From: Terriglobia bacterium
GTDB taxonomy: Bacteria > Acidobacteriota > Terriglobia > 20CM-2-55-15
Assembly (NCBI GenBank): GCA_965198265.1
Contig: CBDAPB010000032.1
Span: 194,557-258,556 of the forward strand
DNA: 64,000 nucleotides
Direction: 5' to 3'
In this document: piece by piece, positions 1 through 63,652 of the stretch
Position numbering within the stretch: position 1 is the first letter of the stretch
How the letters are laid out: each line of letters begins with the position of its first letter
Translations under genes and position numbers: made by a program
The notes under the pieces: model-generated
The model's database searches: none
What the model was told of the DNA's origin: nothing
What the model saw: only the letters and a program-made list of their open reading frames with translations

Positions 1-726
1 ACCCGTGATCAGGCTGAAGTTGTCGGTGCTGGTCGCAGCTATACCGGTCATGTCCTTATGCGGTACGGTGATGTCGAATTTCCATTTGGTTTCGGTGGCA
101 CTTGTCGAGTCCTTGAGGAAGCTGATGGTCGCCAGATGAGGCGCACCCAGCGTATCGTAGAGCTGGAACGTGGTCGAGAACGTGTCGCCGACCGCGGAAC
201 TGCCGTCGAGGTTGAACGCGAGTTCGACCGTTGACGTCGGGCTCGAGTTCCCGGTCGTCGAAGGTATCTTGACGTTCACGGGGGTGCTGTTCTCGTCGAT
301 GAGTCCAGTAGTAGCATTCTTGGGGTAACCCTGGACGAAATGGCCCGTGGCCGTCACCAGGTTGCCGTCCGCGTCGGTGTGGAAATTGCCGCCCCGCGTG
401 TAGAAGGTTCCGGCTCCGTCACTCACGACAAAAAAGCCGGAGCCCTGAATCGCGACATCGGTCGGGTTGTTCGTTGTCTCAACGCCGCCCTGTGTGAAAT
501 TACCACTGATGTTTCCGACGGCGGCCCCGAGGCCGATGTGGCCGCTGCTCGAGGATTTCGCGCTTCCCGCGGCGCTCACCTTCTGGCCCAGAACTTCCAC
601 GAAGGAAATGCTCGTGGCCTTGTAACCGACCGTGTTGATGTTCGCCAGGTTGTTACCCACGACGTTGAGACCCTGTGTGTTGGTCGACAGACCGGATAGC
701 GCTGTCGAAAAGGTGTTGAAACCCAT
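1..726 (-). CDS. flgE: Flagellar hook protein FlgE, 5' part (gene continues beyond window start)
   Basis: Reverse-strand ATG at about 726. The N-terminus MGFNTFSTALSGLSTNTQGLNVVGNNLANINTVGYKA matches the conserved flagellar rod/hook N-terminal motif. The gene is long, as expected for the hook protein, and lies downstream of flgD. Confidence 0.8.
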   Translation of the reverse strand, partial: MGFNTFSTALSGLSTNTQGLNVVGNNLANINTVGYKATSISFVEVLGQKVSAAGSAKSSSSGHIGLGAAVGNISGNFTQGGVETTNNPTDVAIQGSGFFVVSDGAGTFYTRGGNFHTDADGNLVTATGHFVQGYPKNATTGLIDENSTPVNVKIPSTTGNSSPTSTVELAFNLDGSSAVGDTFSTTFQLYDTLGAPHLATISFLKDSTSATETKWKFDITVPHKDMTGIAATSTDNFSLITG

Positions 727-735
727 TAACTCTCC

Positions 736-1107
736 TTATTCGCCAAAAATTTGAGATGGGTCGGGATCATTGGCGTTCCCGCTCTCATCAGGACTGTTCT
801 GGTGCTCCAGGGACTGATGGACATCCTCCATCACACTCCGGATGTTGATCAGCTCTTCCAGGCTGCTGAATTGCGCAAGTTGCGCAACGAACTCGGCACC
901 GTCCATCGGGTTCATGGGATCCTGTCCCTTCATCTGCGCGACCAGCAGCTGCAGGAACTGAGATTTTTGTTCCTGTGCCTTGGTCGTCGTGAGCTGGAGC
1001 TCTTTCGACACGGGAGTAGACGTAACTGATTCAAGCATTCTCTGCCTCCTCGGTCCTCCATAAGGCACGTCCGCTGCCGAATCTTTCTTGCCCACAAACA
1101 ATTGCAT
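736..1107 (-). CDS. flgD: Flagellar hook assembly/capping protein FlgD (short form)
   Basis: Carries the FlgD motif [31 protein letters not shown]. Lies immediately upstream of flgE. The true start may be internal (MLESV...). Confidence 0.8.
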
Positions 1108-1260
1108 TCATTGATGCTTGAACCTTCGACCGAAGTCACTGCTCTTGAAAAATTTCCCCACCCGGCAGTTTTTTCTCATGTCAGAGGGCCCGGGTGCCGA
1201 TACGTTATGGCCCCTGCCGGCTGAGCCCAGCGGGGCCCGTAGCCGTTGTGCCCTTCGGCT

Positions 1261-1289
1261 GTAGTCAGTAGTCAGTAATCAGTTGGGCG
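1261..1289. repeat. Heptamer-repeat element, half copy: (GTAGTCA)2 GTAATCA GTTGGG
   Basis: Tandem 7-mers in the fliK-flgD gap. No partner arm. Confidence 0.8.
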
Positions 1290-1448
1290 CCCGGAATTCC
1301 CGAAGATATCAAGAACTTTCGAGAGCGGTGGAGGCGTTCGCTTAGACAAGGAATGCGCCGCGAGGACGACGGAGGCGTATATGAAATACGTTGAGTACGG
1401 CCGAGCAAGCATGACGCAGGATAAGCGGACGGATCCGCCGCTCCTGCA

Positions 1449-3113
1449 CTACGCGTGGACGTTGACTAGCGAACCCTCGGCCGACGATTCGAAGTGGGTC
1501 GTCAAGGAAGCATCCTCGACTTCACTCATCGTGGACGCCTGCTTTTTGGGGGAATGCGGGTTTCCGCTCTGCGAATGATTCGAGTCGGCGCCCGTGTCGA
1601 AGCGACCGGAGAACAGGACGTCCGACACCGAAACCTGTTCGCGGCTCAGCGATTCGACCAGGTGGTGGACGGAGCCCTCCAGGCCGGAACGAAGGACTGC
1701 GGGCGCATCGAATCGGAGCGAGACCTCACCCTGGTGGTCTCGGATCTGGACACGTACCTCAGCGTCGGAGTCTCCGAGCATCATGGTCACGCGTCGAGCG
1801 GGTTCGAGCGAAAACGTGGTGTCAGCCACCGGTCTGACAGGCTGGGGAGGGGCGACCTGCTGTGGGGCGTTCTGACGTTCGAAGCGGTCACTTTGATTCG
1901 GAACGTCCGCCGACATCTGCACGATCGTGCCGGCGTCCTTCGTCTCTGCAGAGGCGACGGATGGTTGCGCGGCAGCGGAGCGGGCCTGATTGAACTGCCT
2001 CGATGCGATGGCGACTTCCTTCCACACTGGATGGGACGTCACGAGTTGATCGACGGCGGTACGGACGAGAGGCAGCTCTTCGACGGGCAATCGGGGCGCG
2101 GCTTCTGTCGGGCGTGGCGCGTTCGTGCGCGCTTCAAGACGGGCCAGCAGATCCGCTGCCTCGGGGGCTGCCTCGAAATTTACTCTGTACGTGCCCTCGA
2201 CGTCGCGGGGCTGGGTCGCTACCACGACCGGCGTTGAAGAGGGCAGTTCCGAGCGAACGGCTCCTGCAGAAGGCCGTGAGGCGTCCGACACGGCCGATCT
2301 GGTGTTTGGACCACTCGAGGTCGGCTCCGGGCCGGCTGTCTTTGAAGCGGTATCTGGATCCAGGTCGATCGCGAGCTTTCGGACACCGTGCCCTTCCAGG
2401 TCGAGTGCTTCGGTCGAAACGCCAGCCGCTCGAGGGCGCGGGCCCGACACGCTGATGTCCCTAGCTGCAGCGCCGAGCGTCTCATCGTCACCCTGGTTCA
2501 CCGGTGTAGCGTCTTGTGGTCGAACCCTGCCTCGCTGCTCGAGGGGAATGTCGACACCCGGTTCAACGTTCTCGGGTGCGCCGGTCCGGGAAAGGGTGGC
2601 CGTCCGCTCCCCGGATACGACATCCGGCACGGGCCGTTCAACCGGGACTGTATCCCCGTGGGAAACCCTAACGGTCGATTCGACTGGGGCTTTCCCCGTC
2701 GATTCCATCCGCGGCTCAGACCGAGCGTCGTCGCCAAAGCGTTCCAATACCTCGAGAATCTCGGGCACATCAAGAGTTTCTGAATCCGCCAGCTGCTCGA
2801 CCGGCGGCTCGGCCCCTCGCTCGAGCGATTCGCGAATAAAATTAGAAAGATCTATCTCGGGGGGTATTTCGGCGGCTTCAGCAAGGGATGCAATCTCAGC
2901 GGTTTCGGCAAGGACGCCAGAAAGAACCGTTCCACCTTCCGGAGCACCGGCCTCGCCTTCGCCCTCGAGCCCCGCCTGCGTCAGATACGCTTCGAACAAG
3001 GAAGGATCGGAGGCCGCGTCCCCAATCGGGGCGCCGGCAACGGCGGGGTCCCCCTGTGGGGAGATCGGCCCCTGCGGGGAGATCGGCAGGTTTGACTGTG
3101 TCAGGTCTTCCAT
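1449..3113 (-). CDS. fliK: Flagellar hook-length control protein FliK (Pro/Ala/Ser-rich)
   Basis: 554 aa, low-complexity and proline-rich. Sits between fliJ and flgD, as in fla operons. The C-terminal 100 aa or so are more ordered and FliK-like. Assignment rests on position and composition. Confidence 0.65.
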   Translation of the reverse strand: MEDLTQSNLPISPQGPISPQGDPAVAGAPIGDAASDPSLFEAYLTQAGLEGEGEAGAPEGGTVLSGVLAETAEIASLAEAAEIPPEIDLSNFIRESLERGAEPPVEQLADSETLDVPEILEVLERFGDDARSEPRMESTGKAPVESTVRVSHGDTVPVERPVPDVVSGERTATLSRTGAPENVEPGVDIPLEQRGRVRPQDATPVNQGDDETLGAAARDISVSGPRPRAAGVSTEALDLEGHGVRKLAIDLDPDTASKTAGPEPTSSGPNTRSAVSDASRPSAGAVRSELPSSTPVVVATQPRDVEGTYRVNFEAAPEAADLLARLEARTNAPRPTEAAPRLPVEELPLVRTAVDQLVTSHPVWKEVAIASRQFNQARSAAAQPSVASAETKDAGTIVQMSADVPNQSDRFERQNAPQQVAPPQPVRPVADTTFSLEPARRVTMMLGDSDAEVRVQIRDHQGEVSLRFDAPAVLRSGLEGSVHHLVESLSREQVSVSDVLFSGRFDTGADSNHSQSGNPHSPKKQASTMSEVEDASLTTHFESSAEGSLVNVHA

Positions 3114-3128
3114 CTATTCAGCTAAGAG

Positions 3129-3584
3129 TTACGCCCGGCTCTTGCGTACATACCGGACGAGGGAAGTTTCGTCGATCATTTTCTGCATCATTGCAGATTC
3201 TTCCCGCTCCGCTTGTTGCAATTGGCGTTCCCGCAGCTTTTCGACGGTCTTTTTCTCCTTGAGGGCTTCCCTCAGGACTGCCTTGCGTTCTTCAAGCTTA
3301 GTAGTTGCTTTTTCAATATCTTGGCGGATTCGGCAAGAGCGACTTTCGGCCGCTCCGACAAACTTTTCGGTACACTGCAGACCCTCGGCGCTGAGCCCTC
3401 CAGGCTGGGAAAATTCTTCCATCGCCTGGCGGATTTTTCCCGCCTCCTCCGCCAGCCGCCCCTCGAGTCGCCGGATATCCCGCTCGCTCTCCCGGACGCG
3501 GGCTTCGGCCGCATCGACGGCGATCTGCCGCACGGACATGAGGCGGTCAAGGCGATTGAGGCTTTGTTTAGTTTCGGTCTTCAT
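3129..3584 (-). CDS. fliJ: Flagellar export chaperone FliJ (coiled coil)
   Basis: 151 aa, charged coiled coil, between fliI and fliK. Confidence 0.7.
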   Translation of the reverse strand: MKTETKQSLNRLDRLMSVRQIAVDAAEARVRESERDIRRLEGRLAEEAGKIRQAMEEFSQPGGLSAEGLQCTEKFVGAAESRSCRIRQDIEKATTKLEERKAVLREALKEKKTVEKLRERQLQQAEREESAMMQKMIDETSLVRYVRKSRA

Positions 3585-3593
3585 GGCGCAAAA

Positions 3594-3676
3594 GTGGTCA
3601 GTGGTCAGTGGTCAGTGGCCAGCAAATCGCCGCATCAACTTCCGATTCTGACCACTGGCCACTGGTCACTGGCCAC
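3594..3676. repeat. Heptamer-repeat palindromic element: (GTGGTCA)3-GTGGCCAG / 25-nt spacer / (CTGACCA, CTGGCCA) arm
   Basis: Inverted arms of tandem 7-mers that exactly fill the fliJ-fliI junction. The right arm encodes the last 3 codons and stop of fliI. Confidence 0.85.
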
Positions 3677-5003
3677 TATCCAGCGCTGCCAGTTCGACGA
3701 GACTCGAGCGCGTGCCGTCCATGTCGGCTCGCTCCTCGGCTGGCTGCTTCAGAAAACTGTTGATGGAATCGAGGCGGTCGATCGCCGTGTCGACACGCGG
3801 GTTCGAACCCTTCTTGTAGGCGCCGATCTGGATCAGGTCCTCGGCCTTCTTGTGCGTGCCGAGCAGGTCACGGATCTCGGTCGCCGATTTCTGGTGTTGG
3901 GCGTCCACCATCTGCATCATGAGCCGGCTGTTACTGGCGAGAAGGTCAATGCAGGGGTAATGACCTCTCGAAGCCAGTTCGCGGTCCAGCACGATGTGGC
4001 CGTCCAGGATCGCGCGGACCGAATCGGCGATCGGGTCGTTCATGTCGTCGCCTTCGACCAGGATCGTGTAGAAAGCCGTGATGCTACCCTCGTCGAACTT
4101 GCCTGCCCGCTCCAGAAGCCTGGGAAGCAGCGAAAAGACCGACGGCGTGTACCCTTTGGTCGACGGTGGTTCTCCCGCTGCCAATCCCACCTCTCGCTGC
4201 GCCATCGCGAACCGGGTCACCGAATCCATCATCAGCAGCACGTTGTGTCCCCGCCTCTGGAAGTACTCGGCCGCAGCGGTCGCCGCGAACGCGGCGCGTA
4301 TGCGCACCAGCGCCGGCTGGTCCGAGGTCGAGACAAATACGACGGAGCGCTTCAGACCTTCTTCACCGAGGTCGTTCTCGATAAACTCGCGCACCTCCCG
4401 GCCTCGCTCGCCGATCATGGCAATCACGTTCAGGTCGGCGCTAGTGTAACGGGCGATCATGCCCAGCAGCGTACTCTTGCCCACGCCGCTTCCTCCGAAG
4501 ATTCCGACTCTCTGGCCCATGCCACAGGTAAGCAATCCGTCTATGGATCGAATACCGGTCTGAATGGGATCTCGGATGGGGTCTCGAGACAGCGGATTCG
4601 ACGGCTCCGCATACAAAGCCTGCTGGCCCAGACCGGTGGGCAGTGGCCGCTCATCGATTGGACGACCGAGGCCGTCCAAAACCCGGCCCAGTAGCTCGTC
4701 TCCCACACCGATGGTGGCGACGCGGCCTGAAGCGTACACACGGTCACCCTGCTTGACGTTTTCGAGCTTGCCGAGCGGCATCGTGATCACCTTGCCTTCG
4801 TTGAAACCCACGACTTCCAGCGGGACCTTTGTCCCGGCGCTCTCGGCCCAGCAAATGGAGCCCGTCGTCACGTTCGGACCATGGGATTCGATGGAGTTGC
4901 CGACGACCTTATCGATAAGTCCGAATTCGATCAGAGAGTTCAGTTCGGCGAGGCGGGAGTAGCGCTCGGCAAGGTTCAAATCTTTGGCAAACTGGTTCGG
5001 CAT
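3666..5003 (-). CDS. fliI: Flagellum-specific ATP synthase FliI
   Basis: Walker A motif GGSGVGKST. Shares the F1/T3SS ATPase family. Confidence 0.95.
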   Translation of the reverse strand: MPNQFAKDLNLAERYSRLAELNSLIEFGLIDKVVGNSIESHGPNVTTGSICWAESAGTKVPLEVVGFNEGKVITMPLGKLENVKQGDRVYASGRVATIGVGDELLGRVLDGLGRPIDERPLPTGLGQQALYAEPSNPLSRDPIRDPIQTGIRSIDGLLTCGMGQRVGIFGGSGVGKSTLLGMIARYTSADLNVIAMIGERGREVREFIENDLGEEGLKRSVVFVSTSDQPALVRIRAAFAATAAAEYFQRRGHNVLLMMDSVTRFAMAQREVGLAAGEPPSTKGYTPSVFSLLPRLLERAGKFDEGSITAFYTILVEGDDMNDPIADSVRAILDGHIVLDRELASRGHYPCIDLLASNSRLMMQMVDAQHQKSATEIRDLLGTHKKAEDLIQIGAYKKGSNPRVDTAIDRLDSINSFLKQPAEERADMDGTRSSLVELAALDSGQ

Positions 5004-5019
5004 GAGCCCCGGCGGTTCT

Positions 5020-5598
5020 TCAGGATTGTTCCAGCAACACGCGGCCGATGCCGTTGATGCGGCTCATCATCCGCCCGTCCAGGTGCGTCTTGCTCGTGTC
5101 GATGAGGAAGTCACCCCGCTCCAGCGTGGGTTCGGGAACCACACTCACCGCGGGATTGATGTGCTCGATGGTGGCCCGGACGCGCTCCAGGTCGTCCGAA
5201 CTGACCTTCAGCGCAATCTCGTGGTGACCCTCGAGTCGTTTCAGCGCCAGAGTGGCCAGTGCGCTGACGACGTCCGGGTCCGTCGAGACTTCCCGCTCCA
5301 ATATCGTCTTCGCGATCTCCAGCGCTAGCCGGACGGTTTCCAGTTCCATCGACTCGACCAGGGACTTGTGCGCGATCGCGAACTGGACAATACTCTGGTC
5401 GTAGCGCTTGACGACCGTTCCGATCATCTGCTCGCCCATCTGTTTGCCCATGCGTTCGCCTTCGTGGTAGCCCTTCTCGAACGCCTGTTTCTCGACCGTC
5501 ATCACGTGGTCCTGGGGTAGTGCGCCCACACCTCCGGGCGGCGAGCTGATCCTGGGCCTCTTGACGCGTTCGGCGCCGCGGATGATCCTAGAGGACAT
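5020..5598 (-). CDS. fliH: Flagellar assembly protein FliH
   Basis: Lies between fliG and fliI and carries the FliH-like EKGYHEGERMGKQ motif. The ORF track extends to 5688 but that overlaps fliG; the likely start is 5598 (MSSRIIRG) or 5502 (MTVEKQ). Confidence 0.75.
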   Translation of the reverse strand: MSSRIIRGAERVKRPRISSPPGGVGALPQDHVMTVEKQAFEKGYHEGERMGKQMGEQMIGTVVKRYDQSIVQFAIAHKSLVESMELETVRLALEIAKTILEREVSTDPDVVSALATLALKRLEGHHEIALKVSSDDLERVRATIEHINPAVSVVPEPTLERGDFLIDTSKTHLDGRMMSRINGIGRVLLEQS

Positions 5599-6586
5599 AC
5601 TCGTCGGAACCTCCGCCGATGGCGATAACACCCTCGTCCTCGAGCTGTCGGACGATTTCGACGATGCGCTGCTGAGCGGCGTGGACATCGCGCATCTTCA
5701 TCGGTCCCATGATTTCCATCTCTTCCCTCAACATCTCCACCGCACGTTGCGACATGTTCCGGAAGAACTGATTCTGGAGTTCCGGGATGGTGCCCTTGAG
5801 CGCCTGCCCGATCGTTTTCTTGTCGACACGCTGCAGGATTTCCCGCATCGCGGTGTCGTCGAGTGTCGAAATGTCTTCGAAGATGAACATCAACTGCCGG
5901 ATGGAGTTCGCAATCTCCGGTGTCGTCGTATCGATCTGCTCGAGCACGGTCCGGCTCATCCGGCGGTCGAGGCGGTTGAACATTTCCGCCACGGCCCGGA
6001 TGCCGCCGAATCCCTCTCCGTCTCCGTAATTGCCCACCGGTTTGAGCTTTTCCTCCAGTACGGAAGCAACTCCGCCGATCACGTCGGGCGAGATCTCCTC
6101 CATGTTCGCCATCCGGACGGCGACCTCGGCCTGGATGTCCTCAGGCAGCGATTCCAGAAGTTCCGCGGCGGCTCTGGGGCCAAGATGGGCCAGGATCAAA
6201 GCAATCGTCTGCGGGTGTTCGTGCTGGATGAACTGCGCCAGCTGGAGCGGGTTGACTTTGTCGATCGACTGGAAGGCGTTGGTGCTGGCGTAACTGGAAG
6301 AAAGCCTGTCGATGATTCGCTTGGCAGAGCCCGCGCCGAGGGTCTTCAGGATGACCTTTCTGGCGTAGTCCACGCCGCCCTCGGACACGAAGCGGTTCGC
6401 CACGAGCATCTGGTACAGCTCTTCGGCGTTCTCTTCGGCCTGGTCGGCCGAGATCGGACCGACGTTGGAGATTTCCTTCGATAACTGTTCGATCTCGGAC
6501 TCGTTCAGATGGGCCATCACGCCGGAGGCGGTTTCTTCGCCCAGCAGAACGAACATCGATGCGGCTTTGTGTGCGTCTCCACCCAT
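5588..6586 (-). CDS. fliG: Flagellar motor switch protein FliG
   Basis: 332 aa, full-length similarity pattern to FliG (FliG middle and C-terminal domains, EHPQTIALIL). Confidence 0.95.
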   Translation of the reverse strand: MGGDAHKAASMFVLLGEETASGVMAHLNESEIEQLSKEISNVGPISADQAEENAEELYQMLVANRFVSEGGVDYARKVILKTLGAGSAKRIIDRLSSSYASTNAFQSIDKVNPLQLAQFIQHEHPQTIALILAHLGPRAAAELLESLPEDIQAEVAVRMANMEEISPDVIGGVASVLEEKLKPVGNYGDGEGFGGIRAVAEMFNRLDRRMSRTVLEQIDTTTPEIANSIRQLMFIFEDISTLDDTAMREILQRVDKKTIGQALKGTIPELQNQFFRNMSQRAVEMLREEMEIMGPMKMRDVHAAQQRIVEIVRQLEDEGVIAIGGGSDEYVL

Positions 6587-6789
6587 ATCTAACCTGCGCT
6601 CTCTGTCTCAGCCCGGATTATTCGTGCTTGTCGTCGCGAAGCGGTGGAGACGCCGCAGAGACAAGGCGCGCGACCGAGGCCCCCGCAGGCGTATATGACA
6701 ATACGTCGAGGAGGCCGACCGAGCGCAACGCCGTATCTGCGAGTGTATCCGCCGCTGCAGTAGACAATTCATGAATAAATCCGGGCTAA

Positions 6790-8601
6790 CTACTGTTTCT
6801 CTTCGTTCAGCCACACGCGAACCAGGCGTGCGACGGTTTCGGGTTCCCGTTTGGCGTGTTCGACCACGCGCGATCGGATCAGATCCACCTTGTTGGACGT
6901 CGGCAACGGGAGGAACTCGCGTTCGGGCGACCCATCAGTCGCCGCTGACGCAATCGCCGGAACCGTGTTCGGACCCCTGGCCGACGCGATCGACGGGATG
7001 CTGTTCGGGTCGATCCCGGCAGGTGCCGGATTGGCTGGAGCCGGCATACCGACCTGGGCCGGCAGGGCTTGGGCCTGGCCGGGAACCGTCGGTAGCGGGG
7101 CTGAATTCAGTTGTTCTTCAAGCTGCTGGACCGACACCGGTGTCTGGATCGTCGCGCCGAAATCACCGGCGGCGGCCGCCGCCGCGGCCAGCTGCGGACG
7201 CGGTTCCCAGTTGGCAAATATCGTCTTCTGCAGGGGCCGCAGGAACAGCAGGTAGACGAACAGGAACACGATCGGGATGATCAGGTACCGGAGCGCCGTC
7301 AGAATCAAGGGCGCTTGCTGCTCCAGCATCGTGGGCGGGATGACCGGCAACGCTTCATTACCGAACGAGACGTTCTCGACGATTAGCGAATCCCCGCGAT
7401 TGGCGTTGAAGCCGACGGTGGCCGCGACCAGATCGCGGTACTTAGTCATTTCTTGCTGCGGCCAGGGCTCCGACAGGGGCGTCGCGACACCTTCGTCGTC
7501 GACTTCAATCGTCGTCTTGTTGTCGAGGATCACCGCGACCGACATGCTCAGGATTTCCCCGACCGGGTTCACGACATGCCGAACGGATTTGGAAACCTCG
7601 TAGTTAACGACTTCGTTCTCGCTGACGTAGTCCCCTTCGCCGGGCTGCGCCGGCACCGCGGCCGGGTCCGCCTGGCCCTGGGGGCCGGGAATGCCGATGG
7701 CTGGGTTGTCTCCGGGAGTCCGCTCGGTGCGGATCTGCTGGGATCGGATCACGGACGCGTTGGGGTCGTACTGTTCGACAGTTTCTTCGACCTGCTGCCA
7801 GTCCATCACCACCGATACCTGGGGCCGCACTTTCCCGACACCGACCACCGGCTCGAGTATGCGCGTGATCTTTTCGGCCAGTTCGGACTCGATCGTCAGT
7901 CGTGTTTCCAGCTGCCGGCCCGACATCGGGCCGGAATCGTCGTTTTTCGACAGGATCCGTCCCGCGAAATCGATGACGGTCACCTTGGCCGGCTCCAGCC
8001 CTTTGACCGAGCTAGCCACCATGTGAACGATCCCGTTTACGGATGAGTCGGCAAGCGACCGACCACGACTCAGACGCAGGATCACCGATGCCTTGGTCTG
8101 ATTTTCGTCCGACTTGAACAACGATTCGCCGGACAGGACGAGGTGAACCCGCGCGACATCCACCTCCGAGAGTGTCGAGATGCTTCGCGCGAGCTCGCCT
8201 TCCAGGGCCCGCTGGAAGTTCACCTGTTCCTGGAAGTTCGTCAAACCGAAGTTAGTCCGGTCGAAAATCTCAAAACCGATGCGTCCTGACTCGGGCAAGC
8301 CTTCGCTGGCGAGCTGAATCCGAATCTCGGACATCTTGTCCCGGGGGACGCGCACCGTGGCGCCGTCATCGGACAGTCGGTATTCGACCGACATGCCCTG
8401 CAGTCGTTGAACGACAGCCTGGGCATCGGATGGATCCAGCTCGGAATACAAAACCTGGTAGTCCACCCGGTTAACGAAGTACACCAGAGTCCAGAGCAGG
8501 ACGATGACGGATGCCGCGGAACCGATGATCGCGACTTTCTGCGACAGGGTGTAGCTGTTCAACCAATCTTTGAGTTGATCGATGCTAGAAGGTGCAGCCA
8601 T
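6790..8601 (-). CDS. fliF: Flagellar M-ring protein FliF
   Basis: 603 aa, N-terminal transmembrane helix, YscJ/FliF ring domains, C-terminal transmembrane helix plus the FliG-binding tail. Confidence 0.95.
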   Translation of the reverse strand: MAAPSSIDQLKDWLNSYTLSQKVAIIGSAASVIVLLWTLVYFVNRVDYQVLYSELDPSDAQAVVQRLQGMSVEYRLSDDGATVRVPRDKMSEIRIQLASEGLPESGRIGFEIFDRTNFGLTNFQEQVNFQRALEGELARSISTLSEVDVARVHLVLSGESLFKSDENQTKASVILRLSRGRSLADSSVNGIVHMVASSVKGLEPAKVTVIDFAGRILSKNDDSGPMSGRQLETRLTIESELAEKITRILEPVVGVGKVRPQVSVVMDWQQVEETVEQYDPNASVIRSQQIRTERTPGDNPAIGIPGPQGQADPAAVPAQPGEGDYVSENEVVNYEVSKSVRHVVNPVGEILSMSVAVILDNKTTIEVDDEGVATPLSEPWPQQEMTKYRDLVAATVGFNANRGDSLIVENVSFGNEALPVIPPTMLEQQAPLILTALRYLIIPIVFLFVYLLFLRPLQKTIFANWEPRPQLAAAAAAAGDFGATIQTPVSVQQLEEQLNSAPLPTVPGQAQALPAQVGMPAPANPAPAGIDPNSIPSIASARGPNTVPAIASAATDGSPEREFLPLPTSNKVDLIRSRVVEHAKREPETVARLVRVWLNEEKQ

Positions 8602-8661
8602 AGTTCAGTAGGTCAGGATTCGTACGTCGGGTTGTCGTTCCCCGTCGGGGGTTGTCGTTCC

Positions 8662-8952
8662 TTAGACCTGAGCCCTCATGAGCTCCTGGTAGGCCTGAAC
8701 GATCTTGTTTCGAACCTGCATCATCATCTGGAAGGAAAGGTCGGCTTTTTCCAGAGCGATCATCACCGAGTGCAGGTCGGATTCGTTGTTCAAGAACTTC
8801 TGCAGCTGCTCGTTCGACCCCTCTTCCAGTTTGTTCACCTGGTCGACGGCTTCCTTGAGGATGTTGCCGAATTCGCCCTCCGAAGGCTTCTCTTCGAGCG
8901 GGGCGGGCTGAACGAGCTTCTGCAGGTCGTTGTAAAGCTTGAAATCACTCAT
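8662..8952 (-). CDS. fliE: Flagellar hook-basal body complex protein FliE
   Basis: MSDFKLYNDLQKL...QMMMQVRNKIVQAYQELMRAQV. The start overlaps the flgC stop (ATGA). The ORF track's N-terminal extension was rejected. Confidence 0.85.
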   Translation of the reverse strand: MSDFKLYNDLQKLVQPAPLEEKPSEGEFGNILKEAVDQVNKLEEGSNEQLQKFLNNESDLHSVMIALEKADLSFQMMMQVRNKIVQAYQELMRAQV

Positions 8953-9377
8953 CGTCCGAGATCCAGAGTTCGTTGAATCATCGTCTTGAGCACGCTGATC
9001 GCGGAGATGTTGGCCTGATAGCTGCGCGCCGCACCGGCGAGGTTGGCCATTTCCCGCATCGTGCTCACGTTCGGGTACAGGACATACCCTTCTTCGTTGG
9101 CGTCCGGGTGGCCGGGTTCGAAGCTCCGGATGAAATCGGTCGGGTCGTCGACGACCTCCACCACTTCGACTCCCCTGGGAGACCATCCACCTCTGGCGGC
9201 ATCCAGCGTTTGCTCGAACGGTGTCGCTTTGAACACGACGTCCTGGCGGCGGTACGGGCCGCCTTCTTCCGTACGCGTCGTGCGTGCGTTGGCCAGGTTC
9301 GTGGTGGACACTTCGACCCGCTGGCGCTGTGCCGTCATTGCACTCGCGTTGATGTCAATCGCGGTCAGTAGGCTCAT
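8949..9377 (-). CDS. flgC: Flagellar basal-body rod protein FlgC
   Basis: Contains the rod-protein motif LTAIDINASAMTAQRQRVEVSTTNLANARTT and the conserved C-terminus. Confidence 0.95.
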   Translation of the reverse strand: MSLLTAIDINASAMTAQRQRVEVSTTNLANARTTRTEEGGPYRRQDVVFKATPFEQTLDAARGGWSPRGVEVVEVVDDPTDFIRSFEPGHPDANEEGYVLYPNVSTMREMANLAGAARSYQANISAISVLKTMIQRTLDLGR

Positions 9378-9751
9378 CAGGCACCTCCATCGGTGATGCT
9401 GGACCGAAGAGTCCGCATCTTGTTCTGCAGGAACTGCATCAACGTGACGAACTGCAACCCGTTCTTGGTGACCTCGGTCAGTTCCCGGTCCAAGTCGACG
9501 GTGTTCCCGTTCGGCTTGGTCTTCGTGTCGACGTCGAACATCCGAAAGCCGGAGCTCGTTGCAGCATTAGTCATGTGGCGGCCAGCGGTGCCAACCAGGT
9601 TGAGCAACTCCAGCCGTTCTTCGAACGTCACGTCTTGGGCCCTGTACCCGGGCGTGTCGACGTTTGCGATGTTTGCAGACAGCACCTGCTGTCGCTTGGA
9701 AGCGACGGAGAGCTGGCTCTCGATGAAGTTCATGAAGCTACTTTCGATCAT
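9377..9751 (-). CDS. flgB: Flagellar basal-body rod protein FlgB
   Basis: Carries the SANIANVDTPGYRAQDVTFE motif. Confidence 0.9.
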   Translation of the reverse strand: MIESSFMNFIESQLSVASKRQQVLSANIANVDTPGYRAQDVTFEERLELLNLVGTAGRHMTNAATSSGFRMFDVDTKTKPNGNTVDLDRELTEVTKNGLQFVTLMQFLQNKMRTLRSSITDGGA

Positions 9752-16410: not shown

Positions 16411-16504
16411 AGAGGGTACAACTAAACACGGATGTTTGGACGGGCTCGGATACCCGTGCTCAAGATCAAGGAGGATCAATTTAACTCTTTCAGGGAGGAT
16501 CCTT

Positions 16505-17332
16505 ATGAGCTTTTCTGTAGTCACCAACCTTTCGTCTATCAACGCACAGGCCACCCTCGACCAGACCCAAGGCGGTCTCCAGAGGACCCTGGCACGGTTG
16601 ACGTCCGGACTGCGCATCAATAGCGCGGCCGATGACGCCGCCGGTCAGGCGGTCGCGAACCGGCACAGACTGGACAACACCGGTCTGACGATCGGTATCC
16701 GCAGTGCGAATGACGCCATCAGCAAGCTGCAGATCGAAGACGGCGCGCTGAATAACATTTCTTCTTTGCTCGACCGTGCCTTGACTCTGGCCAGCCAGTC
16801 GGCCTCGGACACCTTTACCGGTTCCCGGGCGACTCTGGACGCGGAGTTCCAGTCGGTGCTTTCGGAAATCACCCGAAACGCGACGGCTGGCGGACTGGAA
16901 ACGGGCAACGCGAACCTGAACGCCCGTTCGGTCTTCGTCGGTAACACGCAGACGGCGACGTCCGCGACGGTTACATACGTCTCGTTCGCCCTGACCACGG
17001 CAGTCGACACGCAGGGTCTCGGTATCAGCACCCAGAACATCACGAGCCAGGCGAACGCCAACACCGCTATCACCGCCATTCAGACTGCCATCGGTACCCT
17101 CGGGACCGTTCAGGGTCGGGTCGGTGCGGCGATGAACCGGTTGAGTTTTGCCGTCTCGCAGGCTCAGACGATGTCGGTCAGTGTGAAGGCTTCGGAATCC
17201 CGAATCCGCGACGCCAACATCGCGGAAGAAGCGGCACAGTTGACGAAGTTCAACATCCTGACCCAGAGCGGCCTCTCAGCGCTGGCCCAGGCGAACCAGT
17301 CATCGCAGTCGGTTCTGCAGTTACTCCGGTAA
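16505..17332 (+). CDS. fliC: Flagellin (short, about 276 aa)
   Basis: Conserved flagellin N-terminus (LRINSAADDAAGQAVANR) and C-terminus (ANQSSQSVLQLLR). GGGAGGA ribosome-binding site. Confidence 0.9.
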   Translation: MSFSVVTNLSSINAQATLDQTQGGLQRTLARLTSGLRINSAADDAAGQAVANRHRLDNTGLTIGIRSANDAISKLQIEDGALNNISSLLDRALTLASQSASDTFTGSRATLDAEFQSVLSEITRNATAGGLETGNANLNARSVFVGNTQTATSATVTYVSFALTTAVDTQGLGISTQNITSQANANTAITAIQTAIGTLGTVQGRVGAAMNRLSFAVSQAQTMSVSVKASESRIRDANIAEEAAQLTKFNILTQSGLSALAQANQSSQSVLQLLR

Positions 17333-17421: not shown

Positions 17422-17694
17422 AGCAGCCAGTGGCAGAAGTCTGATGGTTCGCGCGCACGGGTCTTGCGAGGCGGAGACGAGGCGGGAGGAGGAACTGATG
17501 CGGTTTCATCATGACGACGAGCAACAAAGTATCCGGCCGCAATCCCCGTGCGCCCGAAGGGTTACGGCGGCGTCACACCATCTGCGTTGTTCCCGCGCCT
17601 CAACGATGTACCAGCATCGCCGTCGGCGCGGCGCCTAGCATCTGGCGCAACGCCGCCGTAACGCGAGCCATCAGACTTCTGCCACGGGCTGCTA
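17422..17694 (+). repeat. Stem-bounded conserved element, copy 1: a 32-bp inverted repeat (2 mismatches) enclosing a core of about 210 nt with a Shine-Dalgarno-preceded mini-ORF (MRFHHDDEQQ...)
   Basis: 17422-17453 is reverse-complementary to 17663-17694. The core is about 80% identical to the reverse complement of 59310-59534. GGAGGAGG lies 5 nt before the ATG at 17498. Confidence 0.8.
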
Positions 17695-18204
17695 GCGCAA
17701 CGCCTCGAGCTCACTGAAGATCGTCAGCATCGCCGGCCGCTCTCCCGCACTCATTCCGACAAACTGCCATCGGATCTTGCCTTCCCTATCGATGATGAAT
17801 GCGGACGGCCGCGCGATTCCTTCCTGCGGATGGAGGACATCGTAGGCGCGGATATGGTTTCGGTAGGAGTCCGACAGCACGGGGTACGTCAACTTGAGTT
17901 CCCGAACGGTCTGTCGGGCGGTTTCCTGCGGGTCTGCGCTGAGCGCGATCAACTCCGCGTCGAGTTCCTTGATCTTGTCGTAGTTCGCTTGCAGCTCACC
18001 GAGCTGCTCTTGACAGAACGGTCAAGTGTGCATCCGGTAGAAGATTACCAGAACGTTCTTCTCACCCTTGAAATACTCCAGGTTGACCGACGTACCCTGT
18101 ACGGCCATGCCCGTGATGCCCGGCGCCTCGCGTTCCTGGGCGGCCGCCGGCAACGCGGCAGCCAGGGCGAGGACGAGCACCATTGTGATTCGTAAGATTT
18201 TCAT
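17692..18204 (-). CDS. Secreted thioredoxin-fold (TlpA/redoxin/AhpC-TSA family) selenoprotein; in-frame UGA (Sec) at 18022-18024; redox motif U-P-F-C
   Basis: The ORF track splits this into 18022-18204 (signal peptide ... VLVIFYRMHT) and 17692-17952. These join in frame through a TGA, giving HT-U-PFCQEQLGELQANYDKIKELDAELIALSADP..., where U occupies the first position of the CxxC motif. A SECIS-like hairpin follows the UGA. Confidence 0.75.
17991..18007 (-). promoter_or_regulatory. bSECIS-like stem-loop (GCAGCUC-GGU-GAGCUGC) 14 nt downstream of the UGA
   Basis: A 7-bp stem (or a 6-bp stem with CGGUG loop) containing G-U in the apical loop, about 23 nt from the UGA. Confidence 0.55.
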
Positions 18205-18232
18205 GACTATTCGGCGGTCGAACCAACCGTCA

Positions 18233-18919
18233 TTAGGAGTCGGTCGATCCCCCCACGCCTCCTCCTGTGCTTGAAATCATCGGTACAAATCGTACCGGAA
18301 CCGTGTCTTTGATGTCTATCGCTTCATCACTCTGCTTGGTGACAAGTTGGAGGATCTGGCCGTGTAAGGTGTCGCCCACAGGTATCACCATCCGGCCACC
18401 GGCTCGCAGTTGAGCGACGAGCTTCGGTGGAATCGAGTCAGCTCCGGCTGTGACTACGATGCAATCGAACGGTGCGGCCGCCGGCCATCCGGCGTAACCG
18501 TCGCCGATCCTGAAGTCAATGTTCGTGAAGCCGAGTTTTTCGAGGTTCAGGCGAGCCCCTCGAGCCAGTTCTTCACGAATCTCCACCGTGAACGTCATCC
18601 GCGCGAGCTTTGCGAGCACGGCCGTCTGGTAACCGGATCCGGTTCCGACTTCGAGTACCCGGTCTTCGGCCCCGACTCGTAGCATCTCGCTCATCAGGCC
18701 GACGATGTAGGGCTGGGAAATGGTCTGGCCGTCCTCGATCTGCAAGGGAGTGTCCTCGTAGGCGCTGGTCAGCGAAGACGACGGGACGAACTCATGTCTT
18801 GGTACCCGGCGCATCGCGTCGAGTACGCGCTCGTCCCGAACCCCCCGCGCGCGGATCTGCTCGCCGACCATCCGGCAGCGCGCGGATTCCCACTGATCCT
18901 TGCCGCGTGCGCAATCCAT
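18233..18919 (-). CDS. pcm: Protein-L-isoaspartate O-methyltransferase
   Basis: SAM-binding motif VLEVGTGSGYQTAVLA and PIMT family pattern. Confidence 0.9.
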   Translation of the reverse strand: MDCARGKDQWESARCRMVGEQIRARGVRDERVLDAMRRVPRHEFVPSSSLTSAYEDTPLQIEDGQTISQPYIVGLMSEMLRVGAEDRVLEVGTGSGYQTAVLAKLARMTFTVEIREELARGARLNLEKLGFTNIDFRIGDGYAGWPAAAPFDCIVVTAGADSIPPKLVAQLRAGGRMVIPVGDTLHGQILQLVTKQSDEAIDIKDTVPVRFVPMISSTGGGVGGSTDS

Positions 18920-19729
18920 TCAGGGCTCGATCCCGACCAGGGAGATCATCCGGCCCGCCCGGTCTCCATCCCTGCGGTACGAATAGAAGAGGTCAGCCCG
19001 ACACTTCGTGCACAATGAGGAAACGATCACGCGGCTGTGATCAACGCCCGCTGCAATTAACTGAAGCCGGTTGGCTTCGGCCAAGTTCAGGTGGGGCTTC
19101 GTCCACTCCTCACGCCGCTCGAATACGGCCGGGTGGGCAAACCAGTCGTAAACTTCCTCGCCCACTTCCATACAACAGACTCCGATGTGCGGACCCACGA
19201 CGGCCCAGATGTCGCCCGGATCGAGTCCCGATTCTATGACCATACGATCGACGGTGCGACGCGCAACACCCTCGGAGGTGCCACGCCAACCGGCGTGGAC
19301 GGCCGCAACCGCGCGAGAACCCGAATCGGCGATCAGAATCGGCGCGCAGTCGGCTGTTGCGACACCCAGTGCCATTCCCGAAAGCGACGTGAAGGCCGCG
19401 TCTCCCTCGGGCCTCTCGTTCACCGACATGTTGTCATTCACCGCATGAACGATGTTGGAGTGGATTTGCTTCGGCCTGAAAGACGGCCATCCGGGAACTC
19501 CGATCGCGGCCATGAACCGTTCCCGGTTCTCCTCGATATCGGGTCGATCCGGCCCCGTCGCAAAATCGTCGTTCTCCCCCCTGCGCGTCGAGAACGCATG
19601 GACGATCCTGGGAATCCCGGTCAACTGAGGGGCCGTCAGAAAAGTCACCTGCGAGTTACGCTGTACCTGTAACATATTCCGTCCCGCATTAACGAACGGC
19701 CTCCGGCTGTCAGCGATCAGTTTGAGCAC
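18920..19729 (-). CDS. pgeF: Peptidoglycan editing factor PgeF (YfiH/DUF152, laccase-domain purine nucleoside phosphorylase)
   Basis: HAGWRG motif, conserved His and Cys. The true start may be the internal Met at about 19675. Confidence 0.85.
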   Translation of the reverse strand: MLKLIADSRRPFVNAGRNMLQVQRNSQVTFLTAPQLTGIPRIVHAFSTRRGENDDFATGPDRPDIEENRERFMAAIGVPGWPSFRPKQIHSNIVHAVNDNMSVNERPEGDAAFTSLSGMALGVATADCAPILIADSGSRAVAAVHAGWRGTSEGVARRTVDRMVIESGLDPGDIWAVVGPHIGVCCMEVGEEVYDWFAHPAVFERREEWTKPHLNLAEANRLQLIAAGVDHSRVIVSSLCTKCRADLFYSYRRDGDRAGRMISLVGIEP

Positions 19730-23229: not shown

Positions 23230-23575
23230 TCTCTTCCGGTGTCTTCAGGGGCGCCAACGTTTCGTTCAGGGCCCCGGACCGGTAGCCCTCCACGTCGAGC
23301 GTCACGAAACGAAAACCGATCGCTAGCCAACGCTGAGGGGCCGACGGCCGGTCGCTGGGCAAGCCGACTTCGTCGAGGCCGGGCACCAACAGCCATGCGG
23401 AAAAAGGCCATTGTAAGCCAACCCTGGCGCCGGAGCGATCACCGAATCGGTAACGCCACGTCAGATCGTCTCAAACCTATTGTCAAATAAGGGTTTGGGT
23501 CGGGAAAAGCCTTGACAAAGACACGGTCGTCGCTAAGAATTTTCCTAATCAAGTGGAGGAATAAGAAGAATCGAA

Positions 23576-24102
23576 TGCAAGCTACGCTGTTGCTCAATGC
23601 ATCCTACGAACCGCTGCGCATCATCTCGTGGAAGCGAGCGCTGACCCTACTGTTCGCGGGCAAGGTGGAGGTCATCGACGAGTACGACCGCGAGGTCCAC
23701 AGTGTCACGTTTGCGATCAAGCTCCCGTCCATTTGCCGGCTGATCAAGTACGCCCGGGTCAAGAATCGGCACCGCGTCAAGTTCTCCCGCGCGAACATCT
23801 ACGCGAGGGACGACTACAAGTGCCAGTATTGCGGCAAGAAATCCCCGACCGAAGACCTGACTTTCGATCACGTGACCCCGGTCGCGCGGGGCGGCAAGAA
23901 GAAGTGGAACAACATCGTGACCGCATGCTTCAGGTGCAACCACCGGAAGGGAGGCCGCACGCCCGAACAGGCCGGCATGGAACTCATCCGGCCGCCCACC
24001 GAACCTCGATGGCTCCCGGCCTACCACATCACGTTCAGGATCAAGTCACCTCCCGATAGCTGGCGAGACTATCTGTACTGGACCGTCGAGCTGGACGCCT
24101 GA
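23576..24102 (+). CDS. HNH endonuclease family protein (McrA/COG1403-like, stand-alone)
   Basis: CQYCG...DHVTPVARGG...N...CFRCNHRKG HNH motif. GGAGGA ribosome-binding site before the ATG at 23576. Confidence 0.8.
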
Positions 24103-62107: not shown

Positions 62108-63652
62108 CTAGGAGTCTGCGCGGCAGAAGGACCGGAATTGGGCGGATAGAGATCGAAGATAGGACATGTCACGAACATATCGAACCTATATCCCAGAACA
62201 GAGCCTGCTGCTGCCGCCGTCGCTGAGAGATTGGTTGGCCGAAGATCACCTGTCGTACTTCATATCGGACACGGTGGACGCCATGGATTTGAGCGCGTTT
62301 GAGCAGCGGTATGGAACGGACGGACCGGGCAATCAAGCGTACGATCCGCGGATGATGGTGAAGGTGTTGATCTACGGGTACGCGACCGGGGTGTTCTCGT
62401 CGCGGAAGATCGCGGCGAAGTTGACCGACGACGTGGCGTTCCGGATGTTGGGAGCGGAGAACTTTCCGGCGCACCGTACGATCTCGGATTTTCGCAAACT
62501 GCATCTTGAGGAGTTCGGGAACCTGTTTGTGCAAGTGGTGATGATGGCGCGGGAAGCGGGACTGGTGAAGATGGGAACCGTGGCGGTGGACGGAACCAAG
62601 ATGCGGGCGAATGCGAGCAAACGCAAAGCGATGAGCTATGAACGGATGAAGAAGCAGGAGACCGAATTGGGCGAACAGATTCGGGATCTGTTGAACCGGG
62701 CTACGGCGACCGATGAGGAAGAAGACCAGCGATACGGCAAGGACCGGCGCGGAGACGAACTGCCCGATGGGTTGTCGACCCGCAAAAAGCGATTGGCCAC
62801 GATCCAGGCAGCAATGAAACGGCTCGAAGAACGTCAGATGGCTGCGGACCAGGAAGCGGGACGGGAACCGGGAGACGACAAACCCGGATGCGGAAAGAAG
62901 CCATTCAAACGCCCCATGGGCGAGCCCAAACCGACGGCCCAGGACAACTTCACAGATCCGGAAAGCCGGATCATGAAAACCTCCACTGAAGGGTTCCAGC
63001 AATGCTACAACGCGCAGGCGGTGGTGGATTCCGAGGCCCGGATCATCGTAGCGACAACGGTGAGTTCCAATGCGTCCGACGCGGGACAGTTGGAACCGAC
63101 CCTGGATGCGTTGAACAACAACCTGGGAGAGCATCCCGAACGTGTACTGGCCGATGCGGGATATCGATCCGAGTCGAATCTAGGGATGTTGGAACAACGT
63201 CAGATTGACGGGTATGTTGCCATGGGTCGCGAGAAGAATCTGGCCGATGTTCCACTCCCACCCAAAGACACTGCTGTTGGCCGGATGATGAGAAAGATGA
63301 AAACCAAGCGTGGGCGCGACCGCTACCGGGCCAGAAAGCACATTGGCGAGCCGCCCTTCGGGTGGATCAAGTCGGTGCTCGGATTCCGACAGTTCAGTCT
63401 ACGCGGTTTGGACAAAGTGACCGGTGAGTGGAACCTGCTCACTCTGGCGGTGAACTTACGGCGGATGAACGGGATGATCGAATGGGCATAATCCGGAAAA
63501 CCGGAACCCAGCAGACCCGATACACGGCCAATTACTGGTATCCGTACAGCTCTGAACTCCTCGTATCGGAAGAATCGATGGGTTCTCCTCCGAAGACCCT
63601 CTCAAATCCCAATAAATTCGAGTTCTTCGCGCTCTGCCGCGCAGACTCCTAG
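62108..63652 (+). mobile_element. IS1182-family insertion sequence (about 1.55 kb) with 20-bp terminal inverted repeats CTAGGAGTCTGCGCGGCAGA
   Basis: The left inverted repeat at 62108-62127 is perfectly reverse-complementary to 63633-63652. Contains a single DDE transposase. GC content is lower than the host. Confidence 0.85.
62166..63491 (+). CDS. IS1182-family DDE transposase
   Basis: 441 aa, N-terminal InsH-like domain, DDE region (DGTKMRAN...DAGY). Confidence 0.9.
   Translation: MSRTYRTYIPEQSLLLPPSLRDWLAEDHLSYFISDTVDAMDLSAFEQRYGTDGPGNQAYDPRMMVKVLIYGYATGVFSSRKIAAKLTDDVAFRMLGAENFPAHRTISDFRKLHLEEFGNLFVQVVMMAREAGLVKMGTVAVDGTKMRANASKRKAMSYERMKKQETELGEQIRDLLNRATATDEEEDQRYGKDRRGDELPDGLSTRKKRLATIQAAMKRLEERQMAADQEAGREPGDDKPGCGKKPFKRPMGEPKPTAQDNFTDPESRIMKTSTEGFQQCYNAQAVVDSEARIIVATTVSSNASDAGQLEPTLDALNNNLGEHPERVLADAGYRSESNLGMLEQRQIDGYVAMGREKNLADVPLPPKDTAVGRMMRKMKTKRGRDRYRARKHIGEPPFGWIKSVLGFRQFSLRGLDKVTGEWNLLTLAVNLRRMNGMIEWA

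Follow-up and report, generated by a model that had tools for sequence, protein, structure and literature searches.

A probable selenoprotein gene for a secreted peroxiredoxin-like redox protein in a Terriglobia bacterium

The bacterial selenoprotein family described as Prx-like thiol:disulfide oxidoreductases combines a pfam00578 domain with a UxxC or UxxU motif, in which U denotes selenocysteine (Sec), and has been classed as "predicted with high confidence", with no function assigned beyond redox (PMC9312934, PMC13188914). The family has been known since the mid-2000s (Kryukov & Gladyshev; Zhang et al.) and has WP_010940744.1 as its representative. A genome survey of 2006 listed eight members (PMC1794560), and the same family appeared as "Prx-like 1" in the Global Ocean Sampling data, with 225 Sec and 2,740 Cys sequences (PMC2398784). 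Here, we analysed a stretch of 64,000 nucleotides from a Terriglobia bacterium (contig CBDAPB010000032.1), called the window below, and in particular a minus-strand gene at 17692-18204 that contains one in-frame TGA codon. We consider it very likely that a genuine selenoprotein gene has been mis-annotated here and that it contains a conserved hairpin of the selenocysteine insertion sequence (SECIS) type; the gene would encode an exported, peroxiredoxin-like redox protein with the motif Sec61-Pro-Phe-Cys64.

Founding members of the family, whose sequences we took from the supplement of PMC1794560, align with the window protein Sec on Sec. The protein from Geobacter metallireducens (VITFYRGAW-U-PYCSLQL) gave an E-value of 4e-13 with 25% identity in 157 columns that take in the entire domain, and the one from Desulfotalea psychrophila an E-value of 1e-11, also with Sec in the matching column. 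The window protein shares with the family the AhpC-TSA domain, the UxxC motif with Sec in first place (U61-P-F-C64), the same Sec column, the abundance of Cys-form homologues and a bacterial SECIS (bSECIS) hairpin directly downstream. Because these defining features are present, we assign the window protein to the family, although the relationship is distant. The window clade carries a predicted signal peptide, whereas the deltaproteobacterial members have an N-terminal extension of ~60 residues instead, and it lacks the insertion of ~23 residues that those members have before the F-[IV]-ID strand. The sequence before Sec is R-M-H-T in the window protein and R-G-x-W in the known Prx-like family. 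The window clade belongs to the Terriglobia (Acidobacteriota) and has a conserved pgeF-pcm-X-fdx neighbourhood, and the intact orthologues found are all of the Sec form. The gene thus adds a short form, predicted to be secreted, to the already known Prx-like UxxC selenoprotein family and represents no new family or mechanism.

A reading frame conserved on both sides of the TGA codon

The minus-strand frame from 18204 to 17692 contains exactly one internal stop, the TGA at 18022-18024 (codon 61). It translates as MKILRITMVLVLALAAALPAAAQEREAP...VLVIFYRMHT, stop, PFCQEQLGELQANYDKIKELDAELIALSADP...ELEALR, stop; in a longer view the same translation reads MKILRITMVLVLALAAALPAAAQEREAPGITGMAVQGTSVNLEYFKGEKNVLVIFYRMHT, stop, PFCQEQLGELQANYDKIKELDAELIALSADPQ...FIIDREGKIRWQFVGMSAGERPAMLTIFSELEALR, stop. 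The peptide spanning the Sec position in the joined frame would be FYRMHT-U-PFCQEQLGELQANYDK. A mechanical list of open reading frames (ORFs) splits the gene into two entries, 18022-18204 (60 aa, ATG) and 17692-17952 (86 aa, TTG start). An earlier note on this DNA, made from the sequence alone, had read these two adjacent ORFs as one gene across the in-frame TGA. The frame, the domain span and the orthologues all agree with that proposal, and every coordinate it gave was correct when we re-checked the sequence. The AhpC/TSA-family domain that it had recognised was likewise recovered. With U read as C, the joined protein matched Pfam AhpC-TSA over residues 25-146 (E 2.3e-30, 105.5 bits against a cutoff of 26) and Pfam Redoxin (E 2.2e-19), and the Pfam matches together cover residues 25-153, spanning the TGA.

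Among the in-frame TGA candidates sought in a scan of the entire window, only the redoxin TGA emerged. UGA is an ordinary stop elsewhere in the window, where it ends the Cu-oxidase_4, Mfd and hydrolase genes. Genetic code 4 or 25 as the cause of the internal TGA is therefore excluded, because neighbouring genes terminate at TGA.

We searched for orthologues in one genome per GTDB species and found 15 loci, 13 intact and two disrupted, all of them in metagenome-assembled genomes (MAGs) assigned to Terriglobia, Solibacteraceae, Acidobacteria or Vicinamibacterales, the closest being 92% identical. TGA occupies the same codon in 13/13 intact orthologues (56-92% identity), and the protein is conserved on either flank. 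The orthologues are colinear with the window protein along its entire length, and C64 is invariant. Compared pairwise, 14 distinct sequences differed on average at codon positions 1/2/3 by 0.16/0.09/0.40 in the 36 codons before the TGA and by 0.15/0.10/0.40 in the 24 codons after it. Such an equal pattern on both flanks is the signature expected from purifying selection on one protein frame. The earliest ATG, GTG or TTG past the TGA lies 10-37 codons downstream, within the conserved domain, and therefore the C-terminal half can only arise by translation through the UGA. Two outcomes that had been named as contrary to a single gene, namely homologues that all stop at this position and a downstream frame without conservation, were both looked for, and neither was found, as the 13 intact orthologues continue in frame.

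The two disrupted copies share their point of disruption. In L018, from an Acidobacteria MAG (JAQBVV010000123.1, ~1095-2398), the orthologue is split by an IS630-like element of ~1.3 kb with helix-turn-helix and DDE ORFs. The insertion point falls exactly in the SECIS hairpin, at a CTAG made by a CTA-GGT codon variant, and the TA is duplicated. L019, from a Vicinamibacterales MAG (CBDFLL010000005.1, ~3205 onward), diverges at the same CTAG, and residues 1-68 alone are present in the locus.

The wider family pairs Sec with Cys at the same column. Using the C-terminal 109 residues as the query against 1.8 billion cluster representatives, we examined the best 148 matches. Eighty of these representatives are N-truncated calls beginning just past the UxxC site, and 66 are full-length, most of which read FYRG[DH]W-C-P[FY]-C with Cys at the TGA column. 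The DNA of seven truncated-call loci (32-54% identical) has an in-frame TGA at the site in 8/8 gene copies, with the N-terminal half in frame. Their motifs are FYRGQT-U-GPC, FYRMHS-U-VHC, FYRGFF-U-GFC, FYRGFW-U-IYC, FYRGDW-U-TVC, FYLGDW-U-IYC and FYRTGG-U-GLC, together with FYRGGW-U-PFC in a tandem paralogue. We also scanned JGI/ENA metagenomes with a degenerate DNA pattern for F-Y-R-G-x-W-[TGA/TGC/TGT]-x-x-C that left the downstream sequence unconstrained. Among the matches listed, which form an arbitrary rather than random sample, 103 were confirmed as homologues (L030-L149), 53 with TGA and 50 with TGY. The proposal that the TGA column is that of the first Cys of CxxC is supported by Cys in most of the 66 full-length homologues and in 50/103 metagenomic ones, and both kinds of homologue expected at the UGA column, Cys and Sec, were present. 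These counts suggest that, in metagenomes from the environment and largely from soil, members of the FYRGxW[U/C]xxC group use Sec and Cys codons about equally often.

The Sec share of 53/103 among the matches listed is far above the ~8% reported for "Prx-like 1" in the ocean data. Two loci showed unusual architectures. L028 carries two tandem Sec-containing paralogues (538-837 and 970-1806), the second fused to a CarboxypepD_reg domain, and at L020 (2074-3312) the Sec form is joined in frame to an N-terminal region of ~300 residues without a Pfam match.

Fold, export and redox function

We modelled the protein with AlphaFold on the orthologue alignment. The predicted local distance difference test (pLDDT) score was 78-96 for residues 47-170 and low for the signal-peptide region. 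In the model, residue 61 directly precedes helix 62-73, which is the classical CxxC position of thioredoxin-fold proteins. The nearest neighbours found by Foldseek in the PDB were Bcp4, AhpE and a 2-Cys peroxiredoxin (PrxA), with template modelling (TM) scores of 0.70-0.78 and root-mean-square deviations (r.m.s.d.) of 1.6-2.3 Å, the value for AhpE being 1.6 Å. The protein as modelled has a peroxiredoxin fold. The best solved relative by sequence is also a peroxiredoxin, the 1-Cys enzyme AhpE from M. tuberculosis (E about 1e-13); ResA (4nmu) is weaker (6e-10). In the AhpE alignment, FFPLAFTGIC stands opposite FYRMHTUPFC, which places the peroxidatic Cys at C64 and the Thr of PxxxTxxC at U61, with Pro replaced by Arg.

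The earlier note had assigned the protein to the TlpA/ResA-like oxidoreductases. This assignment did not hold, since AhpE, Bcp and 2-Cys peroxiredoxins are the best matches in both sequence and fold, making the protein closer to peroxiredoxins proper, and the ResA model of NCBIfam reached 50.4 bits against a cutoff of 170. The other models of that type were also far from their cutoffs (StoA 42.6/210 bits, WAxxUGC 17/300), as were those of the peroxiredoxins (AhpC 48.6/272, Bcp 40/140, PrxQ 25.4/260, PrxU 26.3/270). TlpA, ResA, StoA and CcmG, including the "thiol:disulfide interchange protein" and WAxxUGC selenoproteins, are likewise exported proteins of thioredoxin fold with a dithiol at the N-terminus of helix 1, but their context is W-C/U-x-P-C, whereas the window protein has FYRxxx-U. 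The SelL-related proteins (NF040769), a Prx-like CxxC/UxxU family, gave the best NCBIfam score (E 7e-18), with a match limited to residues 30-123. Peroxiredoxins proper (AhpE, Bcp/PrxQ, AhpC) and PrxU (TxxU) share the fold, and C64 is at their peroxidatic Cys position. Their reactive residue sits at this position after PxxxT, where the window protein has Sec at the Thr and Arg at the Pro.

Three family assignments were rejected on these grounds. As a canonical peroxiredoxin, the protein would need the PxxxT/SxxC(U) motif, of which RMHT-U-PF-C keeps the Cys position alone, and it missed the NCBIfam peroxiredoxin cutoffs. As a member of the TlpA/ResA family, it missed the ResA and StoA cutoffs, lacks the WCxxC context and has peroxiredoxins as fold neighbours. 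As a SelL-related redox protein (NF040769), it scored 64.8 bits, below the 120-bit cutoff. Because the tested criteria for these families fail, the protein is not a canonical peroxiredoxin, a ResA/TlpA protein or a SelL-related protein.

The N-terminus resembles a signal peptide, as had been noted before, with a basic MKILR, a hydrophobic core and PAAA before QE. The orthologues keep the basic n-region, the hydrophobic core and A-x-A before Q[DE]R, and the N-termini of distant homologues carry a signal peptide, a lipobox or a membrane anchor. Because of this N-terminal layout in the window protein, its orthologues and its distant homologues, the protein is predicted to be exported.

It is possible, though rather unlikely, that the protein works as a peroxiredoxin-type peroxidase that reduces hydroperoxides, its peroxidatic residue being C64 or U61, and not as a thiol:disulfide oxidoreductase. 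The nearest structures by sequence and fold are peroxiredoxins (AhpE at 1e-13, Bcp4 and 2-Cys Prx), but the scores for the AhpC, Bcp, PrxU and PrxQ models of NCBIfam are all far under their cutoffs. C64 aligns with the peroxidatic Cys, yet the surrounding PxxxTxxC signature is lost, with Arg for Pro and Sec for the catalytic Thr, and the active site is a thioredoxin-type UxxC/CxxC dithiol. R132 (in IARP) lies within one residue of the catalytic Arg position of peroxiredoxins but is not invariant in the wider family, where IAKP, IATP and LATP variants occur. Sec is, by established chemistry, an excellent peroxide-reactive nucleophile, whereas the literature classes the family as a thiol:disulfide oxidoreductase of unknown substrate.

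The SECIS-type hairpin and the decoding of the UGA codon

The hairpin begins 14 nt past the UGA, its loop begins 21 nt past the UGA, and its folding energy is -10.1 kcal/mol. The published rules for bacterial SECIS elements (PMC13188914, Fig. 2) ask for an apical loop of 3-9 nt, a stem of 4-16 bp, a G at loop position 1 or 2, mostly with G or U after it, a distance of 16-37 nt from the UGA to the loop and a minimum free energy of <= -7.5 kcal/mol. The window hairpin complies with every one of these rules (loop 3 nt, 7 bp, spacing 21 nt, -10.1 kcal/mol), and the bacterial SECIS geometry 14 nt past the UGA that the earlier note had described agrees with the published model.

The stem appears constrained beyond the protein that it encodes. 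Synonymous diversity at unchanged amino acids was 0.14 for the Leu CTC and 0.0 for the Glu GAG of the stem, compared with ranges of 0.26-0.66 (Leu) and 0.36-0.54 (Glu) at such codons elsewhere in the gene; the loop Gly codon varies freely at its third base (0.69). With only the 14 close orthologues, the covariation test fell short of significance (124/500 shuffles). On 24 sequences including distant homologues, 97% of the cells were paired, 3/7 pairs had changed on both sides, and the covariation score was reached by 0/500 shuffles. Three members of this set (L135, L142 and L149) were chosen after their hairpins had been seen, and L026, with a hairpin in a different register, was omitted. The covarying changes comprise G-C/G-U/A-U, C-G to A-U and G-C to C-G. 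In one such change, CUC/GAG becomes AUC/GAU, by which Leu-Glu turns into Ile-Asp and the pairing is kept. Shifting the 3' arm by one to three columns lowered the pairing from 97% to 14%-55%.

The hairpin also distinguishes Sec from Cys forms in the metagenomic homologues. Among the matches listed, the best rule-compliant hairpin had a median of -7.5 kcal/mol and 6 bp in TGA forms versus -0.7 kcal/mol and 4 bp in Cys forms (Mann-Whitney p = 3.5e-11 for the energies), and 28 of the 53 TGA forms but 3 of the 50 Cys forms had a hairpin of <= -7.5 kcal/mol (Fisher p = 1e-7).

Several observations weigh against the selenoprotein assignment. Within the window, a rule-compliant hairpin of >=7 bp follows 8% of the 1,813 TGA triplets, and one as stable as -10.1 kcal/mol follows 3% of them. 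The 71-nt fold of the hairpin region has z = -0.6. As the hairpin in one sequence is only mildly unusual, its significance rests on the conservation across homologues. The hairpin overlaps the conserved peptide QLGELQ, whose common codons are self-complementary, and Rfam returned no matching family, either for the whole window at the gathering threshold or for 17600-18300 at E <= 10. A Cys-form homologue, L029 (TGT, CRYCRKQLGELQ, ~33% identical; 301-774 of ENA ERZ25039545 contig_38679), has a 17-nt hairpin, GCAGCUCGGUGAGCUGC, that is identical in sequence and in offset. This hairpin may be a fossil SECIS after a recent switch from Sec to Cys, or a codon coincidence, since QL and EL are commonly encoded by CAG-CTC and GAG-CTG, which are reverse complements of each other. 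At the protein level, no curated NCBIfam model matched at its cutoff, the best being SelL_rel_redox (NF040769) with 64.8/120 bits, and the signal peptide and the location in the periplasm, as well as substrate and reductant, are predictions. Finally, selA, selB, selD and tRNA-Sec are absent from the 64-kb window and from every fetched locus. ARAGORN detected neither a tRNA nor a tRNA-Sec gene in the window and 18 loci, and none of the 44 window ORFs surveyed with Pfam was a selA, selB or selD. When E. coli SelA and SelB were compared by tblastn with all 0.88 Mb of the fetched DNA, a single weak match emerged, to a SelA-like paralogue.

This match is an enzyme of 378 aa dependent on pyridoxal phosphate (PLP) at 886-2019 (minus strand) of L081, a soil contig, ~4 kb from a Sec-form Prx-like gene. 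It shows a partial PF03841 match (50 bits) and has no N-terminal SelA domain, and it looks like a SelA paralogue rather than a selenocysteine synthase.

Sec decoding is documented in the same class of bacteria. In Solibacter usitatus (Terriglobia), SelA and SelB occur together with two formate dehydrogenases, FdhA, that contain Sec (PMC1794560 supplement). The search for homologues of E. coli SelA returned enterobacterial clusters only. With the S. usitatus SelA from the same supplement as query, 120 SelA clusters of soil acidobacteria were matched at >=72% identity, all of them close relatives of the query. Bona fide SelA is abundant in soil Bryobacteraceae/Acidobacteriia, and a Solibacteraceae MAG carries an orthologue of the redoxin.

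We regard it as very unlikely that the UGA is read through as Cys, Ser or Trp, be it by a SelB-delivered selC* tRNA(Cys), by an acidobacterial allo-tRNA acting as an opal suppressor, or by near-cognate read-through. Allo-tRNAs with 8/4 or 9/3 structures have been reported from Acidobacteria as possible nonsense suppressors (Mukai et al., PMC5389517), but Sec-decoding genes and Sec-containing FdhA exist in Terriglobia as well. A selC* tRNA(Cys) that mimics tRNA-Sec is known from other phyla but not reported in Acidobacteria (PMC5389517), and for a Cys product a TGY codon would suffice without the cost of recoding. The hairpin retained in the Cys-form L029 would fit decoding of this kind. However, a Sec/Cys pair at a redox CxxC combined with a bSECIS-type hairpin is the standard signature of a true selenoprotein (PMC13188914), and the window protein aligns Sec on Sec with recognised selenoproteins. 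We see just a slight chance that the UGA and the hairpin serve not, or not only, the insertion of Sec, but decoding by an allo-tRNA or a selC*-type tRNA(Cys), which would make the read-through conditional; the hairpin of L029 could likewise point to a second role of the stem-loop, e.g., translational pausing before export. It is extremely improbable that the TGA is a genuine stop, which would leave a pseudogene or two small genes, one for a secreted peptide of 60 aa and one for a truncated piece of a redoxin. In favour of a stop, public gene callers give fragments only, UGA is a normal stop in the source genome and the L018 and L019 copies are disrupted. Against it, the 13 intact orthologues, the most divergent of them at 56% identity, and dozens of remote homologues all keep the TGA, and purifying selection shows an identical pattern on both flanks. 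The 10-37 codons past the TGA lack a start codon yet rank with the best-conserved ones, the Cys of UxxC being one of them; neither fragment alone could make a thioredoxin fold, and homologues have Cys in place of the TGA.

For a selenoprotein, the following course can be proposed. SelB with Sec-tRNA(Sec) would bind the hairpin 14-30 nt past the UGA while the ribosome sits on the UGA, and selenocysteine would be inserted in place of termination. The Sec protein-export pathway would then export the pre-protein and the signal peptide would be removed, giving a mature protein of ~148 residues. In the periplasm, the U61 selenolate at the N-terminus of helix 1 would attack a substrate disulfide (or a hydroperoxide), and the resulting U61-C64 selenenylsulfide would be re-reduced by a periplasmic thiol relay. 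The gene implies that a soil Terriglobia lineage uses selenocysteine and exports a Sec redox protein encoded beside the protein-repair gene pcm. As the earlier note had presumed, selABCD would then lie elsewhere in the genome.

Public annotation and genomic neighbourhood

Public collections hold the gene and its relatives largely as fragments. A search among 5.8 billion proteins returned 14 relatives, one of 170 aa with W at the Sec site and nearly all others of ~100 aa, starting just past the site. The DNA of the 170-aa relative (P0001; L001 234-746, JGI Ga0620836_102644) has TGA at the Sec site, which the call reads as Trp; the gene caller had therefore switched to code 4 on this 1.1-kb contig. 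For the window itself, the 86-aa fragment at 17692-17952 is in NCBI and ENA as an unnamed protein (on a 751,980-bp contig), and the 60-aa N-terminal ORF (18025-18204) is uncalled in public collections. Public entries for the orthologues are 100-109-aa proteins named "peroxiredoxin family protein". The earlier expectation that gene callers split or truncate the gene is borne out by the 86-aa unnamed call here and by the 100-109-aa calls of the orthologues. With 53 TGA versus 50 TGY forms of FYRGxW[U/C]xxC among the matches listed, the truncated "redoxin" calls are therefore likely a systematic annotation loss, and truncation of the Prx-like family is likely widespread in public gene calls. The annotation of the gene is corrected here (Table 1); no curated NCBIfam model would rescue it.

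Table 1. Coordinates of the redoxin gene, its elements and its neighbours in the window
Feature	Position	Strand	Remarks
Complete CDS, predicted selenoprotein	17692..18204	minus	170 codons; ATG 18204-18202, Sec-UGA codon 61, TAG 17694-17692
In-frame UGA, predicted to be read as selenocysteine U61	18022..18024	minus	First residue of the U-P-F-C redox motif, N-terminal end of helix 1
Cys64 codon TGT, putative resolving partner in UxxC	18013..18015	minus	Aligns with the peroxidatic Cys of peroxiredoxins
Predicted Sec-type signal peptide, residues 1-22	18139..18204	minus	MKILR / ITMVLVLALAAAL / PAAA; predicted cleavage before QE
SECIS-type hairpin	17991..18007	minus	7-bp stem GCAGCUC/GAGCUGC, loop GGU; inside the codons for (E)QLGELQ
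pcm, protein-L-isoaspartate O-methyltransferase (PF01135 PCMT)	18233..18919	minus	Upstream co-oriented conserved neighbour
Cu-oxidase_4 (PgeF/YfiH-like)	18920..19729	minus	Upstream co-oriented conserved neighbour; TGA stop abuts the pcm ATG
Flagellin	16436-17332	plus	Next gene, convergent (tail to tail)

The genes around the redoxin are encoded as ACPS (plus), Cu-oxidase_4/PgeF-like (minus), PCMT (minus), redoxin (minus), flagellin (plus) and Fer2 ferredoxin (minus). The order of the PgeF-like gene, PCMT, the split redoxin and Fer2 is conserved in other Terriglobia genomes. Between pcm and the redoxin there is a 28-nt gap in the window versus a 4-nt overlap in L002 and L004, and the redoxin is, judging from this layout, probably in the same transcription unit as pcm. 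A scan for promoters and terminators was uninformative. The remark in the earlier note that the redoxin sits right after fliC stands insofar as a flagellin is the next gene, but the two genes are convergent and not co-transcribed, and the position of the flagellin varies between genomes; because of this variation, we attach no functional weight to the adjacency.

A GC-rich inverted repeat at 17618-17655 (CGGCGUUGCGCC...GGCGCCGCGCCG) lies 37-74 nt past the stop codon of the redoxin, in the gap that separates it from the convergent flagellin gene. A T-run is lacking, and the Rfam matches were at chance level only; the repeat might be a bidirectional terminator.

The beginning of the window (1-9400) holds a flagellar cluster (flgE-like, fliI, fliG, fliF and fliE), followed by sigma-54 response regulators. 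Besides the flagellar and sigma-54 genes, the remaining content of the window consists of housekeeping and aromatic-catabolism genes. A stand-alone HNH endonuclease ORF is found at 23491-24099, and a DDE transposase (DDE_Tnp_1/DUF772) at 62163-63491, near the window end.

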